Origin: a phage
Direction: 5' to 3' (one strand)
Length of the DNA: 64,000 nt
Assembly: GCA_024683775.1 (NCBI GenBank)
Contig: GCA_024683775.1_4106.1
Shown here: in pieces, positions 3,658-16,195 of the stretch
Position numbering within the stretch: the first letter of the stretch is position 1
How the letters are laid out: every line of letters begins with the position of its first letter
Notes under the pieces: generated by a model
Told to the model about the DNA's origin: nothing
The model's database searches: none
What the model saw: only the letters and a program-made list of their open reading frames with translations
Made by a program: the position numbers and the translations under genes

Positions 3658-3678
3658 CAATTAAAGTACTGAATCACT

Positions 3679-3706: not shown

Positions 3707-3785
3707 GTTTATCGTTTACCATGCCACCAGCACCGCCTAGAAACGATTCTAACGCATTAAACTGATTATCTGATGCATTGCCCTA

Positions 3786-3793
3786 GCTGGTGG
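3786..3793 (+). other. Chi octamer GCTGGTGG
   Basis: Exact match read in sequence; paired with an inverted copy at 3724-3731. Confidence 0.8.
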
Positions 3794-3941
3794 CGTTAAG
3801 GCTGTAAGAACGCGATTGAGAGCGTTTAAAGTATTTTGCAAAAAGTAATAAAAAGTACTTGCACGATTAAGAGATTAGCGTATAATGTTTTACATCGAGA
3901 GGGGGAAACGGTTCTCCTTCCAAATCAAAGGAATTAAAACA

Positions 3942-4169
3942 ATGGCTATCGTAATCACTCGCGTAACTGGTACTACTGGCAATTCTTCTACTGTTGCTGT
4001 AATTACTAATAAGAAAGGTGCGGAATTGCATTTTGCAATGGATAAATGGGCCGTTAATGAGTTCGGTCAGTGGGCAAGTGTAGCATACATTGAAACCTAT
4101 CAAGTGCCGTCGATTAGTTTAACTGATTTGGGCGTTGAGCGTATCCTTTGCCTGGATGAATTAAATTAA
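3942..4169 (+). CDS. hypothetical protein (75 aa)
   Basis: ORF; promoter, hairpin GGGGGAAACGGTTCTCC and SD upstream; track start 3885 lies in the -10 box. Confidence 0.7.
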   Translation: MAIVITRVTGTTGNSSTVAVITNKKGAELHFAMDKWAVNEFGQWASVAYIETYQVPSISLTDLGVERILCLDELN

Positions 4170-4255
4170 AAAAGTACTTGCAAAGTAAATCAGATAAAGT
4201 ATAATACATTACATCAAGGGGAGAAATGGTTCTCCCTGATAATGAGGAAACTAAT

Positions 4256-4399
4256 ATGAAAACTTGTCAATGTGGTAAAAAATCTATTACTGGTTTAAAG
4301 CGGGGCGTTGCACTTTGCCAGTACCATTATAATTTACAAGTATGGGGTAAAGAATGGGCCGACCAGGTGGAAGCAGCAAAGAAAGCAAAAAGTAAGTAA
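4256..4399 (+). CDS. hypothetical small Cys-containing protein (47 aa)
   Basis: Short ORF not in track; promoter, hairpin GGGGAGAAATGGTTCTCCCC and SD AATGAGGAAA upstream. Confidence 0.5.
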   Translation: MKTCQCGKKSITGLKRGVALCQYHYNLQVWGKEWADQVEAAKKAKSK

Positions 4400-4417
4400 A
4401 ATATTATCACAGTACTA

Positions 4418-4446
4418 TTGACATAGTTTGATAGTACTGGCATAAT
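4418..4446 (+). promoter_or_regulatory. sigma70-like promoter (TTGACA-17-CATAAT)
   Basis: Hexamers read directly; the same cassette recurs near 7260, 7520 and 15450. Confidence 0.6.
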
Positions 4447-4489
4447 AGATTTTATCAAGACGACACATATTAATTTAAGGAATACTAAA

Positions 4490-4813
4490 ATGGCTAAAAC
4501 TATCATTAACACCGTTTCCCTGGCTGCAATCCGTGCAATCAATGTTGACGGTAAACGTTGGACTGATTCATATGGCAATACTTATCATTCTTGTCATGTA
4601 AGCGTTGAACTGGATAACGGTTTGAATGATCTGGCGGTTGAATCATTTACTTATGGCTATGAAGATGCATATCAACAAACGGCGTTAGATCTCTTAAAGG
4701 AATCAGTAGACGGGCTTAATACTGATGACACCTCCCTTACTCGTTTGTGCAATGATCTTAATATCCCGTTGCATTGTACTGTACAGAATGTTAAACGCAA
4801 AAAAGATCTTTAA
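4490..4813 (+). CDS. hypothetical protein (107 aa), paralog of CDS 10978
   Basis: ORF; shares RWTDSxGNTYHSC and FTYGY motifs and C-terminal KRKKD with CDS 10978. Confidence 0.7.
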   Translation: MAKTIINTVSLAAIRAINVDGKRWTDSYGNTYHSCHVSVELDNGLNDLAVESFTYGYEDAYQQTALDLLKESVDGLNTDDTSLTRLCNDLNIPLHCTVQNVKRKKDL

Positions 4814-4893
4814 TTAGCTTTACTTTATGCAGATACTTTGATATAGTGTCTGCATAGGGGAAAGAAATTAAATTAACTTAAGAGGAACGTATA

Positions 4894-5163
4894 ATGAAAA
4901 ATATCAGTACTTTAATCGACGCAGGTACACATGTTCGGCGGTCTATGGTTGCAACCAGTACTACAAAACAAGTACCAAGCGGTTATCTTGTATTTGTGCA
5001 CGATGGTAAACTCCTGGAACGTTCAATCAATTTTGATGTTAAAAACAATTGCCGTTTTATTATCTTTAAGCGTGAGCAATATAAAATTGATTTACCAGCA
5101 AAGCCCATAAGCGGGGCGTACAACGTGCAATCATTGTTTGAACGTCAACCATACACCTATTAA
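4894..5163 (+). CDS. hypothetical protein (89 aa)
   Basis: ORF; SD AAGAGGAA upstream. Confidence 0.65.
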   Translation: MKNISTLIDAGTHVRRSMVATSTTKQVPSGYLVFVHDGKLLERSINFDVKNNCRFIIFKREQYKIDLPAKPISGAYNVQSLFERQPYTY

Positions 5164-5214
5164 TCAAAACATCGTTAGCGGTCGATTTAGGCCGCTTATA
5201 TTGGGGATTATACC

Positions 5215-5487
5215 ATGAACGTTAATCAAGTACTGAATGAGATCGAAAGCATCATTAAACCGATGAAGCGTACTGATGCTATGTTAACACCGGAAGAATG
5301 CCGCCTTTATGAGCGTTACAGCGTCGAACAAGTCCAGGCGATGGCTATGGCTACCCCAGCCGTTAAACCGCCTGAGAATGCGTTACAGGACGTTACAGGG
5401 GATTATATCATCAATCCAGTACTAGGGAAGATGGCTGCAATCACCGAAGATCAACAAGACTACTTAAGCCAGTACTTAAAAGGTTAA
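5215..5487 (+). CDS. hypothetical protein (90 aa)
   Basis: ORF; SD-like GGGG before ATG. Confidence 0.6.
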   Translation: MNVNQVLNEIESIIKPMKRTDAMLTPEECRLYERYSVEQVQAMAMATPAVKPPENALQDVTGDYIINPVLGKMAAITEDQQDYLSQYLKG

Positions 5488-5492
5488 TTAAT

Positions 5493-5702
5493 ATGCTTAC
5501 TGTACAGGATAAGATCGACATCTTAAAGGTTAATATGTATGTGATTGATGCAGTACCTGGTAAAGTATTTGCATACGATGACAGTACTGTAAGCGATTTC
5601 TACTATAGCCAGGCCGTGGGGGATCTTTCTGTACAGTCGGTTATTGAAAACGTAGTTAATGCAGCGTATGAGCATTTACTTTCAAATAGTACTTGCAATT
5701 AG
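5493..5702 (+). CDS. hypothetical protein (69 aa)
   Basis: ORF 5 nt after previous stop; likely co-translated. Confidence 0.55.
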   Translation: MLTVQDKIDILKVNMYVIDAVPGKVFAYDDSTVSDFYYSQAVGDLSVQSVIENVVNAAYEHLLSNSTCN

Positions 5703-5771
5703 TTTTTAAACGCGTATAATGTTTTACATGAAGGGGAGAAATGATTCTCCCCACTAATTAAGGAATATGAA

Positions 5772-5918
5772 ATGAAAGCATCAAAAAAGAGTACTAACAA
5801 GAAAGCACGTTCAACCTTAGATGGGGTATTCCCTTTACGTTTCGTTGATGAAGTAGTTTCCTACCCGCCGGGCCTTACTCCTGAGATGGTAGAAAGTTTG
5901 CGTAAATCTAAAAAATAG
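5772..5918 (+). CDS. hypothetical small basic protein (48 aa)
   Basis: Short ORF not in track; promoter, hairpin and SD AAGGAA upstream. Confidence 0.5.
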   Translation: MKASKKSTNKKARSTLDGVFPLRFVDEVVSYPPGLTPEMVESLRKSKK

Positions 5919-5999
5919 TACTTGCAATTAGTTTTTAGTACTGTATAATGTTTTACATGAAGGGGAGAAATGATTCTCCCCAATAACAGGAGAAACAAA

Positions 6000-6152
6000 A
6001 TGAAACAATACAACGCTCGGTTTGATGTTACTATCGGTAACGGCAAAGGTCAATTCTCTTTCAGTACTCGCAAAAGTTATACAGAAAACTTCCTGCGTAA
6101 TTGTGCACTGACCGCCGCTCAAATTAAACATTATTTTCAGGCTAAAAAATGA
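6000..6152 (+). CDS. hypothetical protein (50 aa)
   Basis: ORF; promoter, hairpin, SD AGGAGA upstream; trimmed from track ORF 5970. Confidence 0.6.
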   Translation: MKQYNARFDVTIGNGKGQFSFSTRKSYTENFLRNCALTAAQIKHYFQAKK

Positions 6153-6238
6153 GATCATTAGCTTATTACAGTTCGGCCCTGGTCGGTGCATTGATCGCGG
6201 CGTTGTTAGTAACCTATCTATTCTTTATGGTGATTTAA
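6149..6238 (+). CDS. possible hydrophobic peptide (29 aa)
   Basis: ATGA overlap with previous stop; single hydrophobic helix; very short, so speculative. Confidence 0.3.
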   Translation: MRSLAYYSSALVGALIAALLVTYLFFMVI

Positions 6239-6382
6239 ATGAATCCAACAGGTTTAAACTATAAAAGTTGTTCGGCGTTTACGAAAGCAAATAAAGCGAA
6301 TGCACGTAAAGCGAAAGTACAGGAATACATCAAGCAAGGCATGACGCGAAAGGCGGCGATTCTAAAAGCTAAAAATAAATGA
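6239..6382 (+). CDS. hypothetical small basic protein (47 aa)
   Basis: Short ORF directly after previous stop; Lys/Ala-rich; terminator downstream. Confidence 0.4.
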   Translation: MNPTGLNYKSCSAFTKANKANARKAKVQEYIKQGMTRKAAILKAKNK

Positions 6383-6384
6383 AA

Positions 6385-6478
6385 AAAGTGGTTGACTCCG
6401 GTCAGCCATTTTGCTATTATATATTCATTGAGAGATAGCTCACTAGCCCACAGGGTGCATAAGTGTATCTATTATATG
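6385..6478. repeat. composite intergenic repeat, copy 1
   Basis: Terminator hairpin (6389-6414) overlapping TTGACT-17-TATTAT, then conserved box CCCACAGGGTGCATAAGTGTATCT; similar copies at about 10025, 13310, 16082. Confidence 0.7.
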
Positions 6479-6593
6479 AGTATTGAGTACTGAAAACTAT
6501 TTGATAAAAAGTACTTGCAAACTATCTCAATAAGCGTATAATGTTTTACATCGAAAGGGGAAACGGTTTCCCCTGGTAATAAGGAAACGAATC

Positions 6594-6935
6594 ATGACTA
6601 TCTCAATTGCTCAATCTAACTTTGAAAATGAAATCATCGCCCAGGCACTGCGTTTAAATGATGGTCGGGCCGAAATTAATTACGGTTTCAATTCAGGCGG
6701 TTGCGAAAACTATCAGTACTTTGTAACGGCTGATGGCGGTGTCCTGGGTATCAATACAGTTATTGTAAACATCCAAAAAATTAATTTCAATGATCCAGAC
6801 GATAGCCAGTTTTACATCACTGGCGTAGACGTGAACTATGAGGATGACTCACTAACTGATGATTACACTGGCGAGCGGTTAGAAAGTGCATACGGTGAAG
6901 ATGATTATCAGTCCGGTCCAGAAGATTTCGAATAA
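6594..6935 (+). CDS. hypothetical acidic protein (113 aa)
   Basis: ORF; promoter, hairpin GGGGAAACGGTTTCCCC and SD upstream. Confidence 0.7.
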   Translation: MTISIAQSNFENEIIAQALRLNDGRAEINYGFNSGGCENYQYFVTADGGVLGINTVIVNIQKINFNDPDDSQFYITGVDVNYEDDSLTDDYTGERLESAYGEDDYQSGPEDFE

Positions 6936-7028
6936 TATAAAAAAATAGTTTGACAATAGATTATAGTACTGTATAATGTTTTACATGAAGGGGAGAATAG
7001 TTCTCCCCACTAACAGAGAGAAAACAAA

Positions 7029-7241
7029 ATGGCTAATATCTGCACTGTACTGAAAAATGCAAAACAAGTTTTATTTTCTGATCACGATCATTTAAACAAG
7101 GATATTACTGGCGTTCGGAATATCAAAGATGTAAAAAGTGTTATGGGTATCTATTGCAATATGAAACGTGTCGGCACGTTCGGCGATAAAGTACTATACC
7201 AGGCAGGGGATTACAATTTTACACTGACTATCATTAACTAA
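7029..7241 (+). CDS. hypothetical protein (70 aa)
   Basis: ORF; promoter TTGACA...TATAAT, hairpin and SD upstream. Confidence 0.7.
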   Translation: MANICTVLKNAKQVLFSDHDHLNKDITGVRNIKDVKSVMGIYCNMKRVGTFGDKVLYQAGDYNFTLTIIN

Positions 7242-7324
7242 AAATATTATCACAGTACTATTGACATAGTTTTATAGTACTGACATAATAACTTTTATCA
7301 ACTACACTACTAAGGAATTAAAAA

Positions 7325-7504
7325 ATGGCTATCATCGCAAAAACTGAAATCGTTGGTCTGGATTCTATCATCATGACGTTTGAAGATCAAAAAGGTATGT
7401 ATGTAGTTTCATATGGTGATTATGTTCGGGAGTATGAAACGGTAGACGAAGCCTTTGAAAGTTATATTCGCCAGGTGAATAAAGCATACGACGACTACCG
7501 CTAA
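7325..7504 (+). CDS. hypothetical protein (59 aa)
   Basis: ORF not in track; type-III promoter and SD AAGGAA upstream. Confidence 0.55.
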   Translation: MAIIAKTEIVGLDSIIMTFEDQKGMYVVSYGDYVREYETVDEAFESYIRQVNKAYDDYR

Positions 7505-7594
7505 AATATATTACCAGTACTATTGACATTGTTTGATAGTACTGTATAATAAGTTTTATAAACAGTAGTTAACTTAACCTAAGAGAGAAATAAA

Positions 7595-7738
7595 ATGATC
7601 GCACTGGATTCATTCATCGACGCAGTACTGGCAAAAACTGGCGAGGATCTGACCGCAGAACAATACGCGATGATCGAGCAATGTCAGCAAAACGGTAAAT
7701 CGGTGAAAGATACTGTTAAGATTATCCGCAAGATGTAA
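7595..7738 (+). CDS. hypothetical protein (47 aa)
   Basis: ORF not in track; promoter and SD AAGAGAGA upstream; hairpin downstream. Confidence 0.5.
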   Translation: MIALDSFIDAVLAKTGEDLTAEQYAMIEQCQQNGKSVKDTVKIIRKM

Positions 7739-7759
7739 TATTATAGCCCACTGGTTAAC

Positions 7760-7767
7760 GCTGGTGG
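7760..7767 (+). other. Chi octamer GCTGGTGG
   Basis: Exact match inside the hairpin after CDS 7595. Confidence 0.8.
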
Positions 7768-7837
7768 GCTATAATCATTTACCCTATACAATGCCAGTAC
7801 TCAACCGTTTATCTCGTTAGAATGCGTTACAGGACGT

Positions 7838-8041
7838 TTGACAATGATTAGCATGAAATCAGTACAAAAACAAATAGAAACATTATCAAAAATTAAACGT
7901 AAACAGTACTCGTTAGAATATACAATCAATGGTAACTATCATCTAATGAAAGAGAATAATTTCATTGTCATTGATGAATCATTGCAAGTTATTAGTATAG
8001 TACTGAAAGCATTAATCAATGACAGAAAAAAATTAAAATAA
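7838..8041 (+). CDS. hypothetical protein (67 aa)
   Basis: ORF only; no clear promoter cassette or SD. Confidence 0.35.
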   Translation: MTMISMKSVQKQIETLSKIKRKQYSLEYTINGNYHLMKENNFIVIDESLQVISIVLKALINDRKKLK

Positions 8042-8268
8042 TCTATTGACAATATCCTCCAGTACTGGCATAATACTTACATCAAGACGAGAACGTCACT
8101 AACCCATAGGGTGCACAAATGTAACTATATAATATCGATCAATAAATGATCAAAAAGTACTGGATCAATTTAGCATAAGGCGTATAATTCTGATCAATTC
8201 TTGATCAAAGGCAATATACGCAGTTGAATTTATATAGACAGTACAAAGGCGTTACTATCCGTGGTAAT

Positions 8269-8276
8269 GCTGGTGG
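8269..8276 (+). other. Chi octamer GCTGGTGG
   Basis: Exact match read in sequence. Confidence 0.8.
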
Positions 8277-8369
8277 ATATGTAGTATCATATGGTTTGAA
8301 TAAGATAAACACTAGTAGTATTATTGTAGCATTACAGTACTATAGTATTTTTATAATGAGGTTAAAATA

Positions 8370-8627
8370 ATGGCAGTAGGATACGCGAAAGACGGGGCCG
8401 AACAAGACGAGATTCACGCAGTGATTCAGGCAGCCGTTAACCACGCTAGAAAGCAAATTAACGCACAAAGAGAATCACTGGTACATTGCCTCGACTGCGG
8501 CGATAAAATCCCTGAGAATCGACGCCAGGCCGTTATAGGGTGCATGTATTGTATTACTTGCCAGGAGGATCATGATAGTACTTTTAAAAGAGATCCGCGT
8601 AATTGTTGGCATAGATCTATGAGATAA
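8370..8627 (+). CDS. TraR/DksA-family C4 zinc-finger protein (85 aa)
   Basis: CxxC-17-CxxC spacing (CLDCG...CMYCITC) near the C-terminus as in TraR/DksA proteins; SD TGAGG upstream. Confidence 0.7.
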   Translation: MAVGYAKDGAEQDEIHAVIQAAVNHARKQINAQRESLVHCLDCGDKIPENRRQAVIGCMYCITCQEDHDSTFKRDPRNCWHRSMR

Positions 8628-8690
8628 AAAGTATTGACAGTACTGAAAGATAGTGTATAATGTTTTATATCTTAACTGAGGATAGTAATC

Positions 8691-9047
8691 ATGGGAATAC
8701 AACATATCACGCGTACTACTGACAATGGCGAGATCACTGGTTATCAGGTACAGGGCAAAGTAGCACAATTGCAGTACTGGTTTGTTAAACGTGGAATCAT
8801 TGCACCGGATCTTGATTATGACCGTGTAGCGTTTATTGATTCTCTTTATGTTGATCCTGATAGTCGGGGCAATGGTGAAGGTAACGAATTAATGAATGCC
8901 TTTATTGATGCCGCCGATGATTCAGATTGTATCATCTTAGAATGCGATACGGGAGAAGATAACGCCTTTAATCTTAAAGAATGGTACGAAGGTTTCGGAT
9001 TCGAGGTACTGATCGATAGTGAATATCCTATCATGATTTTATCATAG
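8691..9047 (+). CDS. GNAT-family N-acetyltransferase-like protein (118 aa)
   Basis: Motif LYVDPDSRGNGEGNELMNAFI resembles the GNAT acetyl-CoA binding motif A; promoter and SD upstream. Confidence 0.6.
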   Translation: MGIQHITRTTDNGEITGYQVQGKVAQLQYWFVKRGIIAPDLDYDRVAFIDSLYVDPDSRGNGEGNELMNAFIDAADDSDCIILECDTGEDNAFNLKEWYEGFGFEVLIDSEYPIMILS

Positions 9048-9125
9048 TACTTGCATTTAGTTTTCAGTACTGTTATAGTACTTGCATCAAGGGGAAACAT
9101 CTTCCCCTACTAAGAGGAAATAAAA

Positions 9126-9314
9126 ATGGAAAACTTATCAAGTATTTTAGTACAAGATGATTTCGGTAATCCTGGAAGTGCTATCATTGTTCGGGGCAAT
9201 AAAGCAACGTTTGTTATTGCTGGTGGACCCGTACAGCGTAGCATTAAAAATAATGCTGTTACCATTAATAATGTACGCTATCGCTTAGATAAAGAATTAA
9301 TTCATAAACTGTAA
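9126..9314 (+). CDS. hypothetical protein (62 aa)
   Basis: ORF; hairpin GGGGAAACATCTTCCCC and SD AAGAGGAAA upstream; contains a Chi octamer. Confidence 0.65.
   Translation: MENLSSILVQDDFGNPGSAIIVRGNKATFVIAGGPVQRSIKNNAVTINNVRYRLDKELIHKL
9219..9226 (+). other. Chi octamer GCTGGTGG
   Basis: Exact match read in sequence. Confidence 0.8.
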
Positions 9315-9399
9315 AAAAGTACTGGACAATAGATTATAGTACTGTATAATAGTTTACATGAAGGGGAGAAATGATTCTCCCCACTAAGAGGAAAGAAAA

Positions 9400-9612
9400 A
9401 TGCAAGGTCAACTAATCGTTCGTAAATGGTCTGATACTAACGAAAAACCGTGGGATGTACAATACATCGCCCCAAATGGTGAATCCAGATATCAACCAGG
9501 TGTAACGCATAGTACTGAGCAATTCGCCGCCGCTCATCGCGAACGTCTGTTACAATCAATGCAGCACGGTTCCGGTGAAAAATTCATTCAGGATCATTGG
9601 CTGAAAGATTAA
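9400..9612 (+). CDS. hypothetical protein (70 aa)
   Basis: ORF; promoter, hairpin GGGGAGAAATGATTCTCCCC and SD upstream. Confidence 0.7.
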   Translation: MQGQLIVRKWSDTNEKPWDVQYIAPNGESRYQPGVTHSTEQFAAAHRERLLQSMQHGSGEKFIQDHWLKD

Positions 9613-9698
9613 AAAGTACTTGCACAGTACTGAATAAAGTGTATAATGTTTTATATCGGAAGGGGAATAGTTCCCCTCCTAACAAAGAGGAAAGTATA

Positions 9699-9872
9699 AT
9701 GGTCCAGGTAGAATTAACAGTACTGAAAGATCTGTTTTATCGGATTGGTACTACTGGCGAATATCCGAAGGGTGATAATGCAAAACTTTACGTATCACTC
9801 GACTTATGGCAACGCGAACAATTAGCAACGGCCTGGCGTAAAGGCAAAGCAGATAGCGAGGTGAAAGCATGA
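9699..9872 (+). CDS. hypothetical protein (57 aa)
   Basis: ORF; promoter, hairpin and SD AAGAGGAAA upstream; trimmed from track ORF 9597. Confidence 0.6.
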   Translation: MVQVELTVLKDLFYRIGTTGEYPKGDNAKLYVSLDLWQREQLATAWRKGKADSEVKA

Positions 9873-10018
9873 AAGAATTCTTATTTGAAGTAGTGTTTCA
9901 AGGTGTCGGTAATAACCAACTGATTCGATCAAGTGGTTATAATGTTAACCAGGCATGGAATAACATTAAACAAATGTACCCGAACGCTATCACATATCGC
10001 AACCCGAAAGAAGTTTAA
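9869..10018 (+). CDS. hypothetical protein (49 aa)
   Basis: ORF not in track; ATGA overlap with previous stop. Confidence 0.45.
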   Translation: MKEFLFEVVFQGVGNNQLIRSSGYNVNQAWNNIKQMYPNAITYRNPKEV

Positions 10019-10024
10019 AAATAA

Positions 10025-10112
10025 TTGAAAAAGGGATTGACTCCGGTCAGTCCCTTTGCTATTATATACGCATAGAAACAAATTAGCCCACCGGGTGCAT
10101 AAATGTATCTAT
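10025..10112. repeat. composite intergenic repeat, copy 2
   Basis: Terminator hairpin AAAGGGATTGAC-TCCG-GTCAGTCCCTTT overlapping TTGACT-17-TATTAT, then conserved box CCCACCGGGTGCATAAATGTATCT. Confidence 0.7.
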
Positions 10113-10117
10113 TGTTT

Positions 10118-10125
10118 GCTGGTGG
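10118..10125 (+). other. Chi octamer GCTGGTGG
   Basis: Exact match just downstream of repeat copy 2. Confidence 0.8.
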
Positions 10126-10166
10126 CTAGTACTATCAAGTACTGAAAACTATTTTTAAAAAAGTAC

Positions 10167-10194
10167 TTGCAAAGTATCACGATAAGCGTATAAT
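10167..10194 (+). promoter_or_regulatory. sigma70-like promoter (TTGCAA-16-TATAAT)
   Basis: Hexamers read directly; upstream promoter of a duplicated double-promoter leader. Confidence 0.6.
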
Positions 10195-10282
10195 GTTTTA
10201 CATCAGGACGGGGAACGAAATAAGTAACCCCGTTAAGTAGTCCAGGAGTAAGACATACGAAAAACTCCCCTGATAAAATAGT

Positions 10283-10310
10283 TTGACAATAGAAAGTAAA
10301 CGAGTATAAT
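10283..10310 (+). promoter_or_regulatory. sigma70-like promoter (TTGACA-16-TATAAT)
   Basis: Consensus hexamers; about 30 nt upstream of CDS 10344. Confidence 0.65.
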
Positions 10311-10343
10311 ACTTACATCAACCACTGATAAGGAAACATTAAA

Positions 10344-10619
10344 ATGCGGACTTTACTTACAGCTAACGAAATCGAGCAAGTACTGACTACTAATCTGGAA
10401 CAATGGAAACGTGAAGCAGATATCCAGGCGGTTCAATGCCTTAACGATAAGTTAACGCCAGATGACTTAAGCACGATTGTTGATCCACAATTTTATGAAG
10501 ATATTCACGACACGTCTTTAAGCGTCGAGGATGTACTTGATAAGCACTACATTGATACTGATTTACATGTTTACGGTCGTAAAAACTTTATCACTATTCA
10601 CGACATTTACAATACTTAA
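10344..10619 (+). CDS. hypothetical acidic protein (91 aa)
   Basis: ORF; double-promoter leader and SD AAGGAA upstream. Confidence 0.7.
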   Translation: MRTLLTANEIEQVLTTNLEQWKREADIQAVQCLNDKLTPDDLSTIVDPQFYEDIHDTSLSVEDVLDKHYIDTDLHVYGRKNFITIHDIYNT

Positions 10620-10707
10620 GTATTGACAAAGTATCTTAGTACTGTATAATAGTTTACATCAAGTGAGGGGAAACGGTTCCCCTCCTAACAAAGAGAGAGA
10701 AATTAAA

Positions 10708-10890
10708 ATGGCTAAGTGCACTATCTGTAAGAAAGAAATCGTATTAGTTCCAAGTGCCCGTGAACGTGCCGCTCGGTTCGGTGGCAAAGCGTCAGACTAT
10801 ACAAAAATGTTTACTGCCCATGCAGCTTGTCAAGTAGCAAAACGTTCACAAGAAAGCGTAGAATTAATGCGTAAACTTTCCAAAAAATAA
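10708..10890 (+). CDS. hypothetical protein (60 aa, CxxC plus HxxC)
   Basis: ORF; promoter, hairpin and SD upstream; trimmed from track ORF 10663. Confidence 0.65.
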   Translation: MAKCTICKKEIVLVPSARERAARFGGKASDYTKMFTAHAACQVAKRSQESVELMRKLSKK

Positions 10891-10977
10891 GTATTGACAA
10901 AGTATCTTAGTACTGTATAATAGTTTACATCAAGCGAGGGGAATGGTTCCCCTCCTAACAAAGAGAGAGAAATAAAA

Positions 10978-11301
10978 ATGGCTATGATCCTTACCCAGAA
11001 AGTAGAACTGAAAATTGTAACCTCCTTTGACATTAAAGTTAATCGGTGGACTGATAGCCACGGCAATACTTACCACTCCTGCTACGTGTCCGCATTGATT
11101 GGTGATCGCTGGGAAGACCTGGGACACGAAACCTTTACATACGGTTACGGCACACAAGGTGAGTACACGGGTTTAGAAATCATTAAGGAAACTGTAATAG
11201 GTTTCAACCCGAAAGAGAAAGTACTACACAGAATTGAGAAAGAGATCAACAAAGAAATTACAGTTCGCTACTACGATGTAAAACGTAAGAAAGACATGTA
11301 A
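10978..11301 (+). CDS. hypothetical protein (107 aa), paralog of CDS 4490
   Basis: ORF; upstream cassette almost identical to that of CDS 10708; shares motifs with CDS 4490. Confidence 0.7.
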   Translation: MAMILTQKVELKIVTSFDIKVNRWTDSHGNTYHSCYVSALIGDRWEDLGHETFTYGYGTQGEYTGLEIIKETVIGFNPKEKVLHRIEKEINKEITVRYYDVKRKKDM

Positions 11302-11400
11302 TAGAATCCATTTAAAGTACTATTTGACATTGCCCAGATAGTACTTTATAATAGACTCTAACTTGTAGTACTAATTAACTTAACTAATAGGATGTACACC

Positions 11401-11796
11401 ATGATTACTAAATTCTTCGCTACCCGTGAACAAGCTCGCATCGTTGCCCGTGAGGAAGGTGAAACATTTAAAGACATGGGTAAAGATTCTCCTACTGGTA
11501 AACGCTGGGCGGTACAGTTCAAAGAGATCTCTGATATTGTGAATTCACCTGAGCCTGTACTTACAGCAGCAGAACTAAAGCAAGCTCAAGAACTGGCTGA
11601 AGTACTGAACGCTCAAGATGACTTCTTGAAAGGTTCTGATATTGAAGTTACAGTTAACGCAAATGCATGGACTCACGCGGATCACCTGGCAAACCTTAAG
11701 CGTCCAAGTGAACTGATTCGCAACCAGAAAGAGATCCGACACGACCGTAAGGGTAATCGTGTAACAGTATACAGTAAACGCCGCCAGGTTATCTAA
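11401..11796 (+). CDS. hypothetical protein (131 aa)
   Basis: ORF; promoter TTGACA...TATAAT upstream; start chosen at second ATG after AGGA. Confidence 0.65.
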   Translation: MITKFFATREQARIVAREEGETFKDMGKDSPTGKRWAVQFKEISDIVNSPEPVLTAAELKQAQELAEVLNAQDDFLKGSDIEVTVNANAWTHADHLANLKRPSELIRNQKEIRHDRKGNRVTVYSKRRQVI

Positions 11797-11818
11797 TAAC
11801 TTGCAGTACTAACAACAC

Positions 11819-11843
11819 GGCGGGATCAGTTCCCGCCTTTTTT
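11819..11843 (+). terminator. rho-independent terminator
   Basis: Hairpin GGCGGGA-TCAG-TTCCCGCC followed by TTTTTT. Confidence 0.75.
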
Positions 11844-11857
11844 ATAGGACAAACAAA

Positions 11858-12112
11858 ATGATTAAGGTTCAACTATATAAAGATAACATCTTACGGGTAC
11901 ACTATAAAGCACCTCAGAGAATCATCACAAAGGCCGTACAGCTTGCTAATGAGTTTATTAATGGTAACCTATTACCTAGGAAGTTAAGCAACGGGAAACT
12001 GCGTGTAATCGACGTGGACACTAACAACAGGATAGTAATCGAGAACACAGGAAAGATAAACCTTTATGAGCATCAACAATACAATAAGAAAATAAAACTA
12101 ATATCACGTTGA
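11858..12112 (+). CDS. hypothetical protein (84 aa)
   Basis: ORF; SD-like sequence upstream. Confidence 0.6.
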   Translation: MIKVQLYKDNILRVHYKAPQRIITKAVQLANEFINGNLLPRKLSNGKLRVIDVDTNNRIVIENTGKINLYEHQQYNKKIKLISR

Positions 12113-12165
12113 CAGTACTCAATTGTTTTAGTACTATGTACACATACCAACACGGGAGAAACAAA

Positions 12166-12384
12166 ATGAAATTATCTAAAATCGAAAAGAAAACTATTGA
12201 TGAAGCAGTTAAGCACGGTTATACCTTTCGTAATGATTCACATTTTACCAATTTTCAACAAGGGTATCGTACTATTAAAAAACTAATTGACAAAGGTTTA
12301 TTAGTTGAAGTCAATAACGGTAACGGTATCGAGTATCAACCAACACAAGACGCATTTTATTTTAAGAAATATAATATTATCTAA
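12166..12384 (+). CDS. hypothetical protein (72 aa)
   Basis: ORF; promoter and SD GGGAGAAA upstream; trimmed from track ORF 12109. Confidence 0.65.
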   Translation: MKLSKIEKKTIDEAVKHGYTFRNDSHFTNFQQGYRTIKKLIDKGLLVEVNNGNGIEYQPTQDAFYFKKYNII

Positions 12385-12442
12385 TTGACAGTACTCAATT
12401 GTTTTAGTATTATGTACACATACCAACACGGGGGGAAACAAA

Positions 12443-12685
12443 ATGATTACTTTAGAAAAACGTATCAAAGAAACTACATCGCTGGTGGAACTGTTAACAG
12501 TACTCAAATGTAAAACAACACCATTCAGCACGCCGGACTTTATTAATATGGTTGATGTTAATGGTCGCTATCGTATCACGGTCGAACAAGGAGCGGCGAA
12601 AGTATTCAGTACTAAAAACACTAAGGAAGTGATCCACGCCGTTAATGTTAAAAAAGTAGTTGCCATTGATAGTAAAGTACTGTAA
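12443..12685 (+). CDS. hypothetical protein (80 aa)
   Basis: ORF; upstream about 60 bp is a near-identical copy of the region upstream of CDS 12166. Confidence 0.65.
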   Translation: MITLEKRIKETTSLVELLTVLKCKTTPFSTPDFINMVDVNGRYRITVEQGAAKVFSTKNTKEVIHAVNVKKVVAIDSKVL

Positions 12686-12716
12686 TATAGTTTCATTAAC
12701 TCAAGGAGAACATGCA

Positions 12717-13301
12717 ATGCGTAAATATACTAAATTCATCCGTACACTGTCAGAAATGGAAACCAACAAAGAGATCCTTTCAGCTTGTCGGTTAGCTGGC
12801 CTGGAGATCATCGGTGCTGGTTCTTCCCGTATAGTATTCGCTTTAAATGATCGGTTAGTGATTAAGGTCGCGAATTGTGATGCGGGTGTCGAACAAAATG
12901 AAACTGAATGTAAGGTATGGAATTTTTTAGACTATGACCGCCCTCAGTTGAAACAGTACTTTGCAAAGGTGCATATGCATTTATGCGATCCTGATAATAT
13001 GTTTATCGTTATGGATCGGTTGAGTACTGCAAGCAAAGGCAGTGTGAAGCACGTAAACGCGTGCAATGAATTAAAGTACAATATTAAACGTAATGCAATC
13101 GAACGCCAGCACCGCTTTGCTGATGCACTACAACACGTTGATGATACATTATCAACACTAACGATAAGAGATATCAGAAAACAGAATATCGGCCAGGATC
13201 GTAATGGACTTATTAAAGTACTTGATTACGGTTTAACCAGCAATATCTGGAATCAGTACTATAAAAAGCGTGATGTGGCAGCAAGTAAGGTAACACGATA
13301 A
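12717..13301 (+). CDS. protein-kinase-like protein (194 aa)
   Basis: Gly-rich loop IGAGSSRIVF, VIKVA lysine, catalytic-loop-like RDIRKQNIG and DFG-like VLDYG in the expected order; SD AAGGAGAA upstream; trimmed from TTG-start track ORF 12660. Confidence 0.6.
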   Translation: MRKYTKFIRTLSEMETNKEILSACRLAGLEIIGAGSSRIVFALNDRLVIKVANCDAGVEQNETECKVWNFLDYDRPQLKQYFAKVHMHLCDPDNMFIVMDRLSTASKGSVKHVNACNELKYNIKRNAIERQHRFADALQHVDDTLSTLTIRDIRKQNIGQDRNGLIKVLDYGLTSNIWNQYYKKRDVAASKVTR

Positions 13302-13309
13302 AAAAGATT

Positions 13310-13400
13310 AAAAAAGGGATTGACTCCGGTCAGTCCCTTTGCTATTATATATCCATTGAGAGATAACTCACTGACCCATAGGGTGCGGAAGTGTATCTAT
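13310..13400. repeat. composite intergenic repeat, copy 3
   Basis: Terminator hairpin overlapping TTGACT-17-TATTAT, then box CCCATAGGGTGCGGAAGTGTATCT. Confidence 0.7.
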
Positions 13401-13525
13401 TATATAAGTATTCAGTACTGAAAACTATTTGATAAAAAGTACTTGCAAACTATCTCAATGAGCGTATAATGTTTTATATCGAGAGGGGGAAATGGTTCTC
13501 CCTGGTACTAAAAGGAATCAAGACG

Positions 13526-13747
13526 ATGACTACTATGACCTGCGTTCACGCTTCAAATCTTCTGAATGATGCAGCATTTAAAGCAGGTGAAGAATATCAA
13601 TGCTATCGGGATGAAAATAAAAAAGTTTTCGTCGTTGATGCTAACGGTTTCCATATTGAATTGCAATCCGGCTTCACTGGTTTAAATGGTAAATCAGTAT
13701 GGGGCGTTAATGATGATAATGGTCTTTATCACTTTATCCGTAATTAA
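13526..13747 (+). CDS. hypothetical protein (73 aa)
   Basis: ORF; promoter, hairpin and SD AAAGGAA upstream; trimmed from track ORF 13469. Confidence 0.65.
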   Translation: MTTMTCVHASNLLNDAAFKAGEEYQCYRDENKKVFVVDANGFHIELQSGFTGLNGKSVWGVNDDNGLYHFIRN

Positions 13748-13831
13748 GTATTTGACAAAGTATATCAGTACTGTATAATAGTTTACATCAAGGGGAGAAT
13801 AGTTCTCCCCGATACTAAAAGGAATAAAATC

Positions 13832-14239
13832 ATGACTACTACCAATCAAGCTCGGAACATCACCAACGATAAAAATCATGCTGCAATGGTCGCTGGATAC
13901 ATTGAAGCTATGCAATTCAGTACTGTATACAATGAGAACGGCGATTACCTGGAAGATTATGAATTATCAGAGCAAGCCCATCAAGCGGCAGTGATTGCAT
14001 GTTCACGTTTCCTTGCTGTACATGGTGAAGATATGGAAACAGTACAAAAACACCATAATCCTGATTATACTTATAGTCATGCAGGTCATGATCTCTTTCT
14101 TACTCGCGAAGGTCACGGCACTGGTTTTTGGGATCGTGGTTTAGGTCACTATGGCGATGTATTCACGAAGTACTGCGAAGAAATCAACGTTTGCGATCCC
14201 TATGTAGGCGATGATAACTTAATCTATATGGGCGAATAA
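13832..14239 (+). CDS. hypothetical protein (135 aa)
   Basis: ORF; promoter TTGACA...TATAAT, hairpin GGGGAGAATAGTTCTCCCC, SD upstream. Confidence 0.7.
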   Translation: MTTTNQARNITNDKNHAAMVAGYIEAMQFSTVYNENGDYLEDYELSEQAHQAAVIACSRFLAVHGEDMETVQKHHNPDYTYSHAGHDLFLTREGHGTGFWDRGLGHYGDVFTKYCEEINVCDPYVGDDNLIYMGE

Positions 14240-14328
14240 AAGTATTTGACAAAGTATATCAGTACTGTATAATAGTTTACATCAAGGGGAGAATAGTTCT
14301 CCCCACACCAATAAAAGGAAACAAAATT

Positions 14329-14601
14329 ATGTCCAGCTACTCCGCTACTATGATCATTAAAGATATGAACGGTAATCCTACTTCTGCTGGTGGATCATTT
14401 GGAAATATTAACTTAGATGGGCGGTTATCCATGCAATCAGCCATCGATGCAGCGAAAGAAGTTTTTAAGAATGAATGTACTGTTAGTAAGCTGGATTATA
14501 TGGGTTTCGCTATCGAGAAAACTACTCGTTTTGTGAACTACAAAAATCCACTGATGATTGATACTAACCTGAAAGCTAACGAAGTGGGGTACTTATTATG
14601 A
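14329..14601 (+). CDS. hypothetical protein (90 aa)
   Basis: ORF; upstream cassette duplicates the one upstream of CDS 13832; contains a Chi octamer. Confidence 0.7.
   Translation: MSSYSATMIIKDMNGNPTSAGGSFGNINLDGRLSMQSAIDAAKEVFKNECTVSKLDYMGFAIEKTTRFVNYKNPLMIDTNLKANEVGYLL
14385..14392 (+). other. Chi octamer GCTGGTGG
   Basis: Exact match read in sequence. Confidence 0.8.
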
Positions 14602-14789
14602 CAGTAGAAGAAGTAAAAAAAGTACTGGCAGTACTACGATATCATAATCATTGCAAGGTGAAGAATGATCCTGATTATCTTGATTCATCCCTGGAGGAAG
14701 ACACCTTGAACGCTATAAGCCATATGCAGACATTAGCAAAGCGTATGACTGAAAAGAACATGCCGGACTATATCGGAAATAAAATTTAA
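14598..14789 (+). CDS. hypothetical protein (63 aa)
   Basis: ORF; ATGA overlap with previous stop. Confidence 0.6.
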   Translation: MTVEEVKKVLAVLRYHNHCKVKNDPDYLDSSLEEDTLNAISHMQTLAKRMTEKNMPDYIGNKI

Positions 14790-14876
14790 AAAGTACTTGC
14801 ATTGTAGTTAGATTAACGTATAATGTTTTATATCGAGAGGGGGAAATGGTTTCCCCTCAAGTCCAGGAGATACACC

Positions 14877-15140
14877 ATGAACACTATCGAAATCACTATC
14901 AATGCACACGTATACGACAACGTAGTACTGCAAACTACTATGACCGCCAATGATACCAGTACTTTGCGGAATACTGTTATTAGTGCCGTATGTGCCGCTA
15001 TCGGTGATGTCGCCCTGGAAAATGCAAAACACGTAAACGATGGTTTCACTATGTGCAAACGTGATAACGCAAAACATATCATCGTGGAAGGTTACGGCGG
15101 TGTAGAATTTAATGTTTATATGAAAAAAGTACTTGCATAA
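14877..15140 (+). CDS. hypothetical protein (87 aa)
   Basis: ORF; promoter, hairpin, SD CAGGAGA upstream; trimmed from track ORF 14823. Confidence 0.7.
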   Translation: MNTIEITINAHVYDNVVLQTTMTANDTSTLRNTVISAVCAAIGDVALENAKHVNDGFTMCKRDNAKHIIVEGYGGVEFNVYMKKVLA

Positions 15141-15207
15141 TAACTAAAACAAAGTATAATGTTTTGCATAGGGGGAGATATCCTCCCCCACTAAAAGGAG
15201 TAATAAA

Positions 15208-15432
15208 ATGGCTAACTTTGATGAACTGATGCGGGAAGTAGCTAACCTGGCAGAAGAGAAGAAATCATTCGATTCTATCTATAACACCGCTCACCGTGAT
15301 TCAGTACTGGCATGTAACCAGGATCAAAAAGATGAACTAATCGCCACCTATCATGAAGCATGGAAGTACTACCGACAATGGGAGAAAGAAGAAAGTGAGT
15401 CTACCATTGACGGCCTCAATAATCTAATCTAA
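15208..15432 (+). CDS. hypothetical protein (74 aa)
   Basis: ORF; promoter, hairpin GGGGGAGATATCCTCCCCC and SD upstream. Confidence 0.7.
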   Translation: MANFDELMREVANLAEEKKSFDSIYNTAHRDSVLACNQDQKDELIATYHEAWKYYRQWEKEESESTIDGLNNLI

Positions 15433-15508
15433 AAGTTTTATTTCAGTACTATTGACATAGCTTGATAGTACTGATGTAATAACTTTACTAACTACAAGGG
15501 GAAACATA

Positions 15509-15766
15509 ATGGATCAGTTCACACAATATCGGGTAAATCCTCAAGCTATGGCCTACGTAGAAGACCATAAAACGTTACCAGTACTGCAACCAGTTAAAGG
15601 CCATATCTATCGTGCAATGTCGTGGTGTACGGCCCAGGATGGCTATAAAACCGTAGCCGTGGGTATGTATTGCGGTGATGGTGAATGGTTTGATCCAAAT
15701 AATCCGGTATCCATTGACAGTACTGAAAAAATGAAATGGGCCGACTACATCGAAGATATTTCATAA
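15509..15766 (+). CDS. hypothetical protein (85 aa)
   Basis: ORF; type-III promoter and SD upstream. Confidence 0.65.
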   Translation: MDQFTQYRVNPQAMAYVEDHKTLPVLQPVKGHIYRAMSWCTAQDGYKTVAVGMYCGDGEWFDPNNPVSIDSTEKMKWADYIEDIS

Positions 15767-15856
15767 AAACTATTTGACAGTACTAACCAGTAATGTATAA
15801 TGTTTTACATAGAGCGGGGGAATAGTTCTCCCGCCAATAGTTTGGAGTAAAACATT

Positions 15857-16057
15857 ATGTCTATCGCTATCGCCCTGGTTGAAGTACTGAAAGAAGCTAA
15901 AGCCAACCAGATCGACGTAAAGATCCAGGAACTACAAAACGGCTTAATCGGCTGTACTTGTACCGCTGGTGGAGCGGCAGACTATCGAGAACACGAATCA
16001 CTCGAATCACTGGTTCGGTATCTTACCATGATCGTTGATGATTGGAGAATCATCTAA
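15857..16057 (+). CDS. hypothetical protein (66 aa)
   Basis: ORF; promoter, hairpin and SD upstream; contains a Chi octamer. Confidence 0.65.
   Translation: MSIAIALVEVLKEAKANQIDVKIQELQNGLIGCTCTAGGAADYREHESLESLVRYLTMIVDDWRII
15965..15972 (+). other. Chi octamer GCTGGTGG
   Basis: Exact match read in sequence. Confidence 0.8.
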
Positions 16058-16081
16058 CAAAAAAGAATAAAAAAAGGGATT

Positions 16082-16154
16082 GACTCCGGTCAGTCCTTTT
16101 GCTATTATATACGCATAGACAAAAACTAGCCCACAGGGTGCATAGGTGTATCCA
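16082..16154. repeat. composite intergenic repeat, copy 4
   Basis: Terminator hairpin overlapping TTGACT-17-TATTAT, then box CCCACAGGGTGCATAGGTGTATCC. Confidence 0.7.
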
Positions 16155-16187
16155 AAATATATAGTTAATAACGGTGAGTAACTATCT

Positions 16188-16195
16188 GCTGGTGG
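16188..16195 (+). other. Chi octamer GCTGGTGG
   Basis: Exact match just downstream of repeat copy 4. Confidence 0.8.

Follow-up and report, generated by a model that had tools for sequence, protein, structure and literature searches.

The direct terminal repeat (DTR) of a RaK2-like jumbo coliphage contains a dense, polarised cluster of the exact Chi octamer (GCTGGTGG), which probably constitutes a selected cis-acting array directing RecBCD at the DNA ends. In the window (the whole 64-kb stretch of DNA analysed), the octamer has 12 exact matches, 10 on the + strand and two on the - strand ( Table 1 ). The preliminary description had counted nine and two, with eight of the nine + strand sites in its early "zone 1"; the - strand count and the clustering hold, but one + strand site (12481) had been overlooked and another is corrected from 14385 to 14386, the exact figure being nine of 10. 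Its expectation of less than one occurrence of an 8-mer per strand agrees with dinucleotide shuffles of the window, which give 0.40 Chi over both strands, none of 100 such shuffles exceeding two. The excess also stands against Markov nulls (orders 0-4), with nine + strand Chi in positions 1-17,600 where 0.09-0.38 are expected; the single - strand site in 1-17,555 compares with an expectation of 0.02-0.09. These data support the conclusion that the enrichment is inexplicable by composition.

Table 1. Position and context of the DTR, the Chi octamers and the Chi-bearing hairpin in the window.
Feature	Position	Strand	Basis or conservation
Inner 17.5 kb of the ~21 kb DTR	1..17555	+	comparison with relatives' DTRs
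Chi, intergenic, inverted pair with + Chi 3786	3724..3731	-	exact match
Chi, intergenic, 13.8 kb from DTR right edge	3786..3793	+	kept in 5/5 Asteriusvirus genomes compared
Hairpin ATAGCCCAC-N12-GTGGGCTAT; loop and 3' arm contain Chi 7760-7767	7743..7772	+	
Chi, intergenic or within a doubtful 48-aa ORF	8269..8276	+	
Chi within ORF 9126-9314, frame GCT-GGT-GG	9219..9226	+	
Chi, intergenic, on 12-nt insertion in composite repeat copy with hairpin 10030-10057	10118..10125	+	
Chi within ORF 12443-12685, frame CTG-GTG	12481..12488	+	
Chi within ORF 14329-14601, frame GCT-GGT-GG	14386..14393	+	
Chi within ORF 15857-16057, frame GCT-GGT-GG, 1.58 kb from DTR right edge	15965..15972	+	
Chi, intergenic, 1.36 kb from DTR right edge, in repeat copy with hairpin 16073-16100	16188..16195	+	
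Isolated Chi beyond the DTR, no member of the array	55888..55895	-	
Isolated Chi beyond the DTR, no member of the array	63956..63963	+	

The window belongs to an Asteriusvirus jumbo coliphage; since its closest relatives are Asteriusvirus coliphages isolated on E. coli (95-98% identity), the E. coli-like host proposed from the sequence is borne out. The preliminary description located the Chi cluster correctly but missed that its zone is the DTR, with an edge at 17,555. Window position 1 lies ~3.3 kb from the left genome terminus (aligned to position 3284 of fEgEco12), and position 17,555 is, in the right-hand copy, the right genome terminus: the last 25 bases of the vB_Ec-M-J and fEgEco12 DTRs have an exact match in the window that ends there. 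The DTR is annotated in vB_Ec-M-J (21,525 bp), and that of fEgEco12 measures 20,993 bp, with identical left and right copies and termini confirmed experimentally by PhageTerm and restriction digests (PMC13070987). Because the zone is the DTR, the same Chi cluster is present at both genome ends, including the physical right terminus. Positions 1..17555 are also the early region, where ~41 small ORFs lie on the + strand and 11 promoters match the sigma-70 consensus perfectly. All DTR genes are on the + strand, GC skew is positive and GC content is 38.5%, compared with 35.5% in the remaining genome. As the DTR is a host-RNAP early region with a composition of its own, "terminal repeat" and "early region" are inseparable. 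It is not host-derived DNA; megablast returned no match among 5,426 E. coli genomes.

Chi is confined to the DTR as a dense array and recurs as such across genera. In fEgEco12, the DTR holds 10 + and two - sites (1 per 1.75 kb) and the 333 kb unique region 14 and 10 (1 per 13.9 kb), where about 5-7 per strand are expected and genes are mostly on the + strand too. An array of 7-12 sites on the coding strand and 1-2 on the opposite one recurs in the DTRs or DTR-equivalent regions of four further genus-level lineages whose DNA is barely alignable (+/-, fEgEco12 included: fEgEco12 10/2, fENko-Kae01 12/2, Muenster 7/1, Hallingskeid 11/2, XbC2 7/2). Pooled over the five lineages, DTRs average 1 Chi per 1.77 kb and flanking sequence (166 kb in all) 1 per 27.7 kb, density falling ~16-fold exactly at the DTR edge. 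The other array-bearing lineages infect Klebsiella and Erwinia, and an Enterobacterales host is recorded for four of the five. XbC2 stands in the database as a Xanthomonas phage and nevertheless has the E. coli octamer, which counts against a RecBCD reading. No earlier report of this array was found in the literature searched.

The enrichment is restricted to the exact octamer. Chi ranks 14th among over-represented 8-mers of the window's DTR portion, all those above it deriving from repeated promoter or AGTACT elements. Ordering all 8-mers by the lowest count that each has in any of the five DTRs puts Chi 13th of 37,912, with AGTACT words alone ahead of it, and 1st among the 9,276 words with at least five G/C. 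Each of its 24 single-mismatch variants has 0-3 copies. Over the five DTRs, 47 + strand sites were observed against 0.6-1.5 expected (32-83 fold) and nine - strand sites against 0.26-0.45 (20-35 fold; Poisson p about 1e-9), the expectation per DTR being <0.6 for Markov orders 0-3 and at most 1.4 at any order (fENko-Kae01, order 4 unmasked). Sites are found in ORFs in two reading frames, spacers, hairpins and plain intergenic DNA, with no common flanking context, and 20 of 34 (59%) are intergenic where 30% would be expected (p=5e-4), contrary to what a by-product of codon usage would show.

As had been noted from the sequence, two Chi lie directly downstream of copies of a composite repeat; they are those at 10118 and 16188, found here to be 61 and 88 nt past the copies. 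This hairpin-promoter repeat (AAAGGGATTGACTCCGGTCAGTCCCTTT) has four copies, at 6385, 10030, 13313 and 16073, and alignment of these places the two octamers on insertions at differing places, absent from the other copies; in 121Q, one Chi is gained by a 2-nt insertion. On these alignments, Chi appears to have been gained independently in two of the four copies and again in 121Q. Within the genus, Chi octamers are only weakly more conserved than their flanks (divergence 1.7% vs 3.7%, p=0.05, subject to ascertainment bias). The - strand site at 3724 has orthologues in vB_Ec-M-J, fEgEco12 and SP27 and is changed to CCGTCAGC in 121Q; the least conserved is that at 8269 (GCTGATGG in vB_Ec-M-J, GCTGGGGA in 121Q). 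A 20-mer at the hairpin of 7743-7772 (CCACTGGTTAACGCTGGTGG) has an identical copy in the distant phage fENko-Kae01.

Starting from a double-strand end, RecBCD must reach Chi from its 3' side (PMC12315714), and + strand Chi is, as the preliminary description held, in the orientation read by RecBCD arriving from the right (PMC12315714). With the genome ends placed, + sites are found toward the right terminus and - sites toward the left: all - sites fall within the left 36% of the DTR and + sites are skewed right (Mann-Whitney p=0.003, with five - strand sites only, some of shared ancestry). Each orientation is therefore active for RecBCD from the nearer end. In fEgEco12, + Chi of the right DTR copy lie 1.36-20.4 kb from the right terminus and - Chi 0.58 and 6.6 kb from the left one, which is thus guarded by two sites only; the site at 3724, active for rightward RecBCD, is ~6.6-7.4 kb from the left terminus in relatives. 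The counts do show the strand bias originally described, but the 47:9 of the five lineages fails to reach significance once local composition is allowed for (p 0.13-0.29, Chi-masked Markov models of order 2 or higher). Since the DTR is GC-richer and its + strand G-rich, + Chi is 2-4 times likelier than - Chi; with the ratio not exceeding the skew expected from composition, orientation-specific selection rests on site positions, not counts.

Since each end of the linear DNA packaged in the virion has a copy of the repeat, a Chi array would face RecBCD at either terminus. RecBCD loaded at the right terminus would meet 9-10 + Chi in the correct orientation, starting about 1.4 kb in (in the window, with the site at 16188); for RecBCD loaded at the left terminus, correctly oriented - Chi would lie some 0.6 and 6.6 kb away. 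On recognising Chi, the enzyme would quit degrading the 3'-ended strand and load RecA, so that the end would be spared and left with a 3' tail that has its homologue in the second copy of the repeat. Invasion of that copy could circularise the genome if it is in the same molecule, or yield concatemers and recombination-primed replication if it is in another. This follows the model published for P1 and LLS, Chi-stimulated recombination of ends (PMC12315714; bioRxiv 10.1101/2021.07.08.451572). The 10:2 asymmetry would fit an exposed right end, packaged last, injected first and free while terminase holds the left, as in lambda and LLS. We infer that RecBCD reaches these ends, and which of them enters first; the benefit may be protection, recombination or both. 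In the literature searched, no data were found on growth dependence of these phages on host RecA/RecBCD. According to a published rule, Chi-rich phages are without recombinases of their own (PMC12315714). Contrary to it, fEgEco12 encodes RecA/UvsX (PF00154), UvsY (PF11056), gp32 (PF08804) and Mre11/Rad50-like proteins, their genes lying beyond the window.

Selection to protect the DNA from RecBCD, as first suggested, is upheld as to enrichment beyond composition, but protection is one of two readings, the other being recombination of the ends. As a pure shield, Chi would limit RecBCD chewing from the ends, preserving early genes and leaving fewer fragments for CRISPR spacer acquisition, while DTR-by-DTR recombination would be inessential because the phage UvsX/UvsY machinery handles recombination. 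We consider this unlikely, even though the phage family possesses the recombination proteins named above, the array overlies early genes and 11 consensus promoters needed before any phage protein exists, and no RecBCD inhibitor is recognisable among 40 DTR ORFs. A role of Chi in limiting RecBCD-dependent spacer acquisition is established (reported by Levy et al. in 2015). The cis element and the enzyme are, however, the same as in the preferred reading, the downstream benefit alone differing, and Subramaniam and Smith favour Chi as a recombination hotspot over a simple protection signal (bioRxiv 10.1101/2021.07.08.451572). It is decidedly improbable that the octamer is a site or structure for a factor unrelated to RecBCD, acting in early transcription, termination or packaging, with its identity to Chi coincidental. 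Several copies do lie within regulatory structures such as the hairpin at 7743-7772, three fENko-Kae01 copies are in or adjoin promoter-like TTGAC-type sites, in Hallingskeid a T-run terminator follows a stem formed by Chi and anti-Chi, and the terminator stem family AGCCCAC/GTGGGCT already includes GTGG. Such a factor is difficult to reconcile with the varied settings and the lack of a shared flanking context, with enrichment of the exact 8-mer alone, and with the fact that, out of 65,536 possible octamers, the enriched one is exactly that of the hosts' RecBCD, four of five lineages having Enterobacterales hosts on record.

If Chi were oriented, as in the E. coli chromosome, with rightward replication and transcription of the DTR, RecBCD entering at a collapsed fork would be diverted to repair and the termini would be irrelevant. 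The + strand genes, the mostly + strand Chi, the positive GC skew and very strong promoters that could cause replication-transcription conflicts are compatible with this very improbable explanation; the unique region, with mostly + genes and Chi not far above expectation (14 and 10 vs about 5-7), the density step at the DTR edge and the enrichment of - sites at the left end are not. Finally, it is barely conceivable that the octamer is unselected and reflects composition or codon usage, or came along with a repeat family or with DNA derived from the host. The GC-richer DTR with its tilt toward + strand Chi, and the two sites within copies of one repeat family, would be its basis. Against it stand the low Markov expectations, the mostly intergenic sites, insertion at differing places in two of four repeat copies, the lack of similarity to E. 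coli genomes and an equal excess in five divergent lineages; within the limits of Markov nulls, these statistics refute it.

Among the closest known parallels of the proposed array are P1 and its relatives (P7, D6, NGUA22), with about 50 Chi where the terminally redundant packaged ends fall (bioRxiv 10.1101/2021.07.08.451572). As in P1, Chi is far above expectation, concentrated in terminally repeated DNA, coupled to coding more loosely than in E. coli and found in both orientations, offering RecBCD an active site whichever end it enters, the left end here having only 1-2; the proposed role is likewise RecBCD/RecA recombination between terminal repeats after injection (bioRxiv 10.1101/2021.07.08.451572). 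P1 is temperate, packages by headful from pac with a variable 5-10 kb redundancy and depends on host RecA/RecBCD, whereas the jumbo phages are virulent, 350-385 kb in size, with a fixed, exact ~20-21 kb DTR, UvsX/UvsY/gp32/gp46-47-like genes of their own and a strongly asymmetric array (about 10:2) confined to the DTR. The lambdoid phages of the LLS class, termed "no Rec module, high Chi" (Genome Res 2025, PMC12315714; before that Bobay et al. 2013, PMC3784561), resemble the jumbo phages in having many Chi clustered toward a genome end; most of those in LLS are active for RecBCD entering the right end, an asymmetry explained by one end being exposed with terminase on the other (PMC12315714). 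In fEgEco12 the count is 10:2 in favour of the right end, but from Markov order 2 upwards this ratio does not go beyond composition. Unlike the jumbo phages, LLS phages have cos ends, no terminal repeat and, as the correlate defining the class, no recombinase; the jumbo phages differ, fEgEco12 possessing a recombination module. Chi is reported to be over-represented in T5-like virulent phages (Bobay et al. 2013, PMC3784561). T5 is similarly a virulent coliphage whose long DTR carries host-RNAP-transcribed (pre-early) genes, but its first 62 kb hold two Chi in all, which are top-strand sites within the terminal repeat of 10.2 kb, compared with 8-14 per repeat here. The octamer and enzyme are those of the E. 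coli chromosome, where Chi is oriented so that RecBCD at a break leads to recombinational repair; chromosomal Chi occurs once per 4.6 kb, genome-wide, mostly in ORFs and linked to CTG-GTG codon usage (PMC12315714; bioRxiv 10.1101/2021.07.08.451572), whereas here it occurs once per 1.8 kb of 38% GC DNA, mostly intergenic and confined to the repeat.

Tentatively, and with considerable doubt, the DTR of RaK2-like phages might be thought to double as a DNA-encoded end-handling device, in which a polarised Chi array takes the place of a protein end-protector and RecBCD is turned from a threat into a required factor that joins the 20 kb repeats, by circularisation or recombination-primed replication, ahead of the synthesis of any phage recombinase, the 10:2 asymmetry reflecting a right terminus packaged last and injected first. 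If the array functions as proposed, the idea of direct selection for Chi, developed for P1 and LLS, would extend to virulent phages with their own recombinases, and a therapeutically studied jumbo clade (Asteriusvirus, Alcyoneusvirus, Mimasvirus and relatives) would rely on a host-specific 8-bp signal in the first seconds of infection. Since the host's RecBCD has to recognise the type of Chi present, that type would then be a simple sequence marker of host range, and susceptibility would be altered by recBCD or recA status or by Chi-blind RecC variants. The array would also allow inference of which genome end enters first and offer a possible reason for poor spacer acquisition from such phages. 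In practical terms, where an assembly lacks determined termini, the abrupt change in Chi density shows the boundary of the DTR.

At 95-98% identity, the window matches jumbo coliphages of the genus Asteriusvirus, among them vB_Ec-M-J, WPEC3/5 and fEgEco12. The vB_Ec-M-J record annotates a direct terminal repeat (DTR) of 21,525 bp, and that of fEgEco12 (20,993 bp), identical at both ends in a whole-genome comparison, has been confirmed by PhageTerm and restriction digests (PMC13070987). In both DTRs the final 25 bases are found unchanged in the window, where they end at 17,555, and alignment places window position 1 at fEgEco12 3284; therefore 'zone 1', the name given in the preliminary description to the early region holding most Chi, corresponds to the inner 17.5 kb of the DTR. 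This part contains about 41 small ORFs on the + strand and 11 perfect TTGACA-N16/17-TATAAT promoters, which identify the DTR as an early region transcribed by host RNAP. Early region and repeat coincide, so that their effects are inseparable.

Gene layout switches abruptly at the DTR edge (window 17556-20000 onward). Inside the repeat, genes are spaced and separately promoted (38% GC); past its edge, ORFs of 65-90 aa overlap and are tightly packed (31-35% GC), and consensus promoters are nearly absent. The initial ~1.7 kb of the terminal repeat (vB_Ec-M-J 1-1760, fEgEco12 1-1689) carries no annotated gene, and short tandem AAAGTAATCA repeats occur near the left terminus in both phages. PHROGs scans of 40 DTR ORFs left nearly all of them functionally unassigned and recovered no known RecBCD inhibitor, a small novel one being possible. 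An origin of the DTR as captured host DNA, which could have brought Chi with it, was rejected, since megablast against 5,426 E. coli genomes gave no match to it.

Exact search on both strands recovered 12 matches to the Chi octamer GCTGGTGG in the window, compared with a mean of 0.40 and a maximum of 2 in dinucleotide shuffles. The preliminary site list agrees with this search except that it lacked the site at 12481 and placed that at 14386 one base off. Markov nulls of order 0-4 predict 0.09-0.38 + strand copies in 1-17,600, where 9 are observed. Nulls of orders 5-6 gave no usable expectation on unmasked sequence, where sub-word counts come mainly from the Chi copies themselves, and expectations were recomputed with Chi masked. 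The observation is thus real and highly non-random. Chi ranks 14th among over-represented 8-mers in 1-17,600, all higher words deriving from repeated promoter or AGTACT elements, and no longer motif is common to the flanks of the 12 window sites.

Chi sites, Chi-containing elements and Chi counts in terminal repeats (coding/opposite strand)
Feature	Genome	Position or extent	Strand	Chi coding/opposite	Basis or remark
Chi	window	3786, 7760, 8269, 9219, 10118, 12481, 14386, 15965, 16188, 63956	+		exact search
Chi	window	3724, 55888	-		exact search
DTR	fENko-Kae01 (Klebsiella aerogenes; ~29% ANI to fEgEco12)	19,736 bp		12/2	PhageTerm
DTR	Muenster (Alcyoneusvirus)	20,030 bp		7/1	
DTR	Hallingskeid (Erwinia)			11/2	limits undefined
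DTR	XbC2 (Mimasvirus, 39% GC)	OP292654, 1-17500		7/2	limits undefined
DTR	121Q			9/1	
DTR	SP27			8/2	
Palindromic Chi pair	vB_Ec-M-J	588-607			outside window
Palindromic Chi pair	fEgEco12	578-597			outside window
Palindromic Chi pair	fENko-Kae01	484-503			outside window
20-mer CCACTGGTTAACGCTGGTGG	window	7748-7767			
20-mer CCACTGGTTAACGCTGGTGG	fENko-Kae01	19342-19361			
Hairpin with Chi stem	Hallingskeid	~14655-14676	reverse complement		
Composite intergenic unit	window	6385-6412, 10030-10057, 13313-13340, 16073-16100			four copies

The palindrome AGTACT (core CAGTACTG) is itself hugely over-represented, both in window 1-17555 and across fEgEco12, the DTR of which has 138 copies, or 6.6 per kb, and its unique region 839, or 2.5 per kb, base composition predicting ~0.34 per kb. 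Up to 16 kb, each 2 kb of the window has 12-16 copies; 18-22 kb and 26-32 kb have none.

Equivalent regions in other genera were located by tblastn with the DTR kinase-like ORF, and all carry Chi arrays. Across the five genus-level DTRs (fEgEco12, fENko-Kae01, Muenster, Hallingskeid and XbC2) Chi occurs 56 times in 99 kb, a density of 1 per 1.77 kb; the adjoining non-repeat DNA has 6 in 166 kb (1 per 27.7 kb), and the E. coli density is 1 per 4.6 kb (PMC12315714). When 8-mers were ranked by their minimum coding-strand count over the five DTRs, Chi came 13th of 37,912, below 12 words that are all AGTACT words, and 1st among the 9,276 words with at least five G/C. Each of its 24 single-mismatch variants is present in only 0-3 copies across the five DTRs; enrichment is therefore limited to the exact RecBCD recognition sequence. 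Neither the Hallingskeid nor the XbC2 record has a second repeat copy within its final 23-24 kb.

The deposited host of XbC2 is Xanthomonas vesicatoria, yet the phage carries an E. coli-type Chi array. It thus failed as a non-enteric negative control, and doubt falls on either the Xanthomonas label or the Chi recognised by that host. Pseudomonas Chi is GCTGGCGC, and Vibrio and Gram-positives also use different sequences; the relatives found by tblastn included no true negative control, for which the host would have to use another Chi.

Several observations bear on whether the octamer itself, rather than its surroundings, is selected. Intergenic positions account for 20 of 34 Chi sites, compared with 30% expected (p=5e-4), which is the opposite of the codon-driven pattern of E. 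coli; the same intergenic argument for selection has been used for P1 (Subramaniam and Smith, bioRxiv 10.1101/2021.07.08.451572). In the composite intergenic repeat, Chi is inserted in two of the four copies, at two different positions, and is missing from the other two. In 121Q, an insertion of 2 nt created one Chi; single lineages have lost other sites through point mutation. Within the genus, octamers diverge by 1.7% and flanks by 3.7% (p=0.05), a difference that is only suggestive: with genome divergence around the sites no higher than 2-6%, the comparison is too weak as a test.

The composite unit consists of a 12-bp-stem hairpin embedding a TTGACT -35 box, followed by TATTAT, with a second promoter (AAAAAGTACTTGCAAA...TATAAT) ~110 nt further on, an arrangement of tandem early promoters whose first element is structured. 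Asteriusvirus and fENko-Kae01, genomes with only ~29% ANI, share without change the 20-mer CCACTGGTTAACGCTGGTGG, which belongs to the hairpin ATAGCCCAC-N12-GTGGGCTAT and occupies different positions in their repeats. In Hallingskeid, GCTGGTGG-TTTAAC-CCACCAGC followed by TTTTT forms an intrinsic-terminator-like hairpin, the stem of which is Chi and its complement, placing Chi on both strands at once.

To the preliminary description, the excess of + over - sites looked like selection to protect the DNA from RecBCD. On selection for orientation, counts and positions lead to different answers. With Chi copies masked before estimation of the Markov parameters, the five DTRs show a 32-83 fold enrichment on the + strand (47 observed, 0.6-1.5 expected) and also a 20-35 fold enrichment on the - strand (9 observed, 0.26-0.45 expected; Poisson p ~1e-9). 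A ratio of 47:9 goes beyond what composition predicts at order 0-1 only (p 0.13-0.29 at order 2-4), and therefore the original '9 versus 2' is no independent evidence for orientation selection. The positions do favor it. Where DTR limits are defined (three phages), the left 36% of the repeat contains all five - sites and the right half 20 of 29 + sites (Mann-Whitney p=0.003, on few - sites, some with shared ancestry); Hallingskeid and XbC2 were excluded because their limits are undefined. Sites of either orientation thus cluster toward the end from which RecBCD would read them.

RecBCD coming from the right recognises + strand Chi (PMC12315714), as the preliminary description has it. Because the DTR also forms the right end of virion DNA, the distance from the + sites to the physical right terminus is 1.36, 1.58, 3.2, 5.1, 7.4, 8.3, 9.3, 9.8 and 13.8 kb. 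The fEgEco12 DTR has 10 (+) and 2 (-) Chi, with 0.1-0.5 and 0.04-0.11 expected, and its 332.7 kb unique region 14 and 10, with ~5-7 expected per strand (Markov order 3-4). Its DTR - sites, at 577 and 6,618 bp from the left terminus, are therefore active for RecBCD entering from the left, and each has a + partner 4 nt or 54 nt away. The pair closest to that terminus is a perfect palindrome, CCACCAGC-N4-GCTGGTGG, absent from the window because this begins too far inside the repeat.

The palindrome has been conserved in both Asteriusvirus and fENko-Kae01, where it lies ~0.5 kb inside the left terminus. Its 4-nt centre reads TTGT in fEgEco12 and ACAA in vB_Ec-M-J, so that the whole palindrome is flipped between them. 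An IMG/VR scan for it was uninformative, nearly all of the 46 matches being short, GC-rich, unrelated contigs lacking a Chi cluster. In the fEgEco12 unique region, 6 of the 10 - sites fall within a minus-strand array of RCC1-like paralogues ('chromosome condensation regulator') at 333-348 kb (33825-47295 of the genome segment), directly upstream of the right DTR, which looks like a coding-strand or paralogue effect.

Chi clusters are known from other phages. In P1 and relatives they lie in terminally redundant DNA in both orientations (bioRxiv 10.1101/2021.07.08.451572), LLS-type lambdoid phages without a recombination module have many near the right end, mostly in active orientation (PMC12315714), and over-representation was also noted in virulent T5-like phages (Bobay et al., PMC3784561). 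T5 (AY543070) has just two Chi in positions 1-62000, at 8127 and 8689 on the top strand; both are in the 10.2 kb terminal repeat, the 52 kb past it having none, and in the right-hand copy they would sit 1.5-2.1 kb from the right terminus. The jumbo phage array extends this type of feature to a new clade, set apart by a fixed, exact ~20-21 kb DTR, strong asymmetry, conserved palindromic pairs and a phage recombination module. With that module, the jumbo phages depart from the correlate by which the LLS class is defined. A limited full-text literature search found no earlier description of a Chi array in jumbo phages, Asteriusvirus, RaK2 or DTRs, and the genome papers of fEgEco12 (PMC13070987) and Sharanji do not mention it.

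Taken from sequence, the array is best read as a selected one that would direct RecBCD at the ends of the phage terminal repeat. From a blunt double-strand end, on which it loads, RecBCD degrades DNA up to a Chi in the correct orientation, after which the 3' strand is spared and RecA is loaded. Beyond the sequence statistics, we infer that if recognition is ~30-40% per site, the ten sites at the right end would stop ~97-99% of entering enzymes and the two at the left end about half. The remaining 3' tail would fall within the repeat, homologous to the other DTR copy, and strand invasion of that copy could produce a circular genome or concatemers, as proposed for P1 terminal redundancy (Subramaniam and Smith, bioRxiv 10.1101/2021.07.08.451572). 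An exposed right end would account for the asymmetry: this end would be the last to be packaged and the first to be injected, and would stay free with terminase bound to the left end, as lambda and LLS are described (PMC12315714). T5 offers a partial parallel, its pre-early genes dmp, A1 and A2 also being transcribed toward the terminus that enters first. The benefit may be shielding, recombination, reduced CRISPR adaptation or a mix of these, among which sequence cannot decide. Since the phage family encodes its own RecA/UvsX, UvsY, gp32 and Mre11/Rad50-like proteins, any use of host RecBCD is most plausible before the phage recombination genes are expressed.
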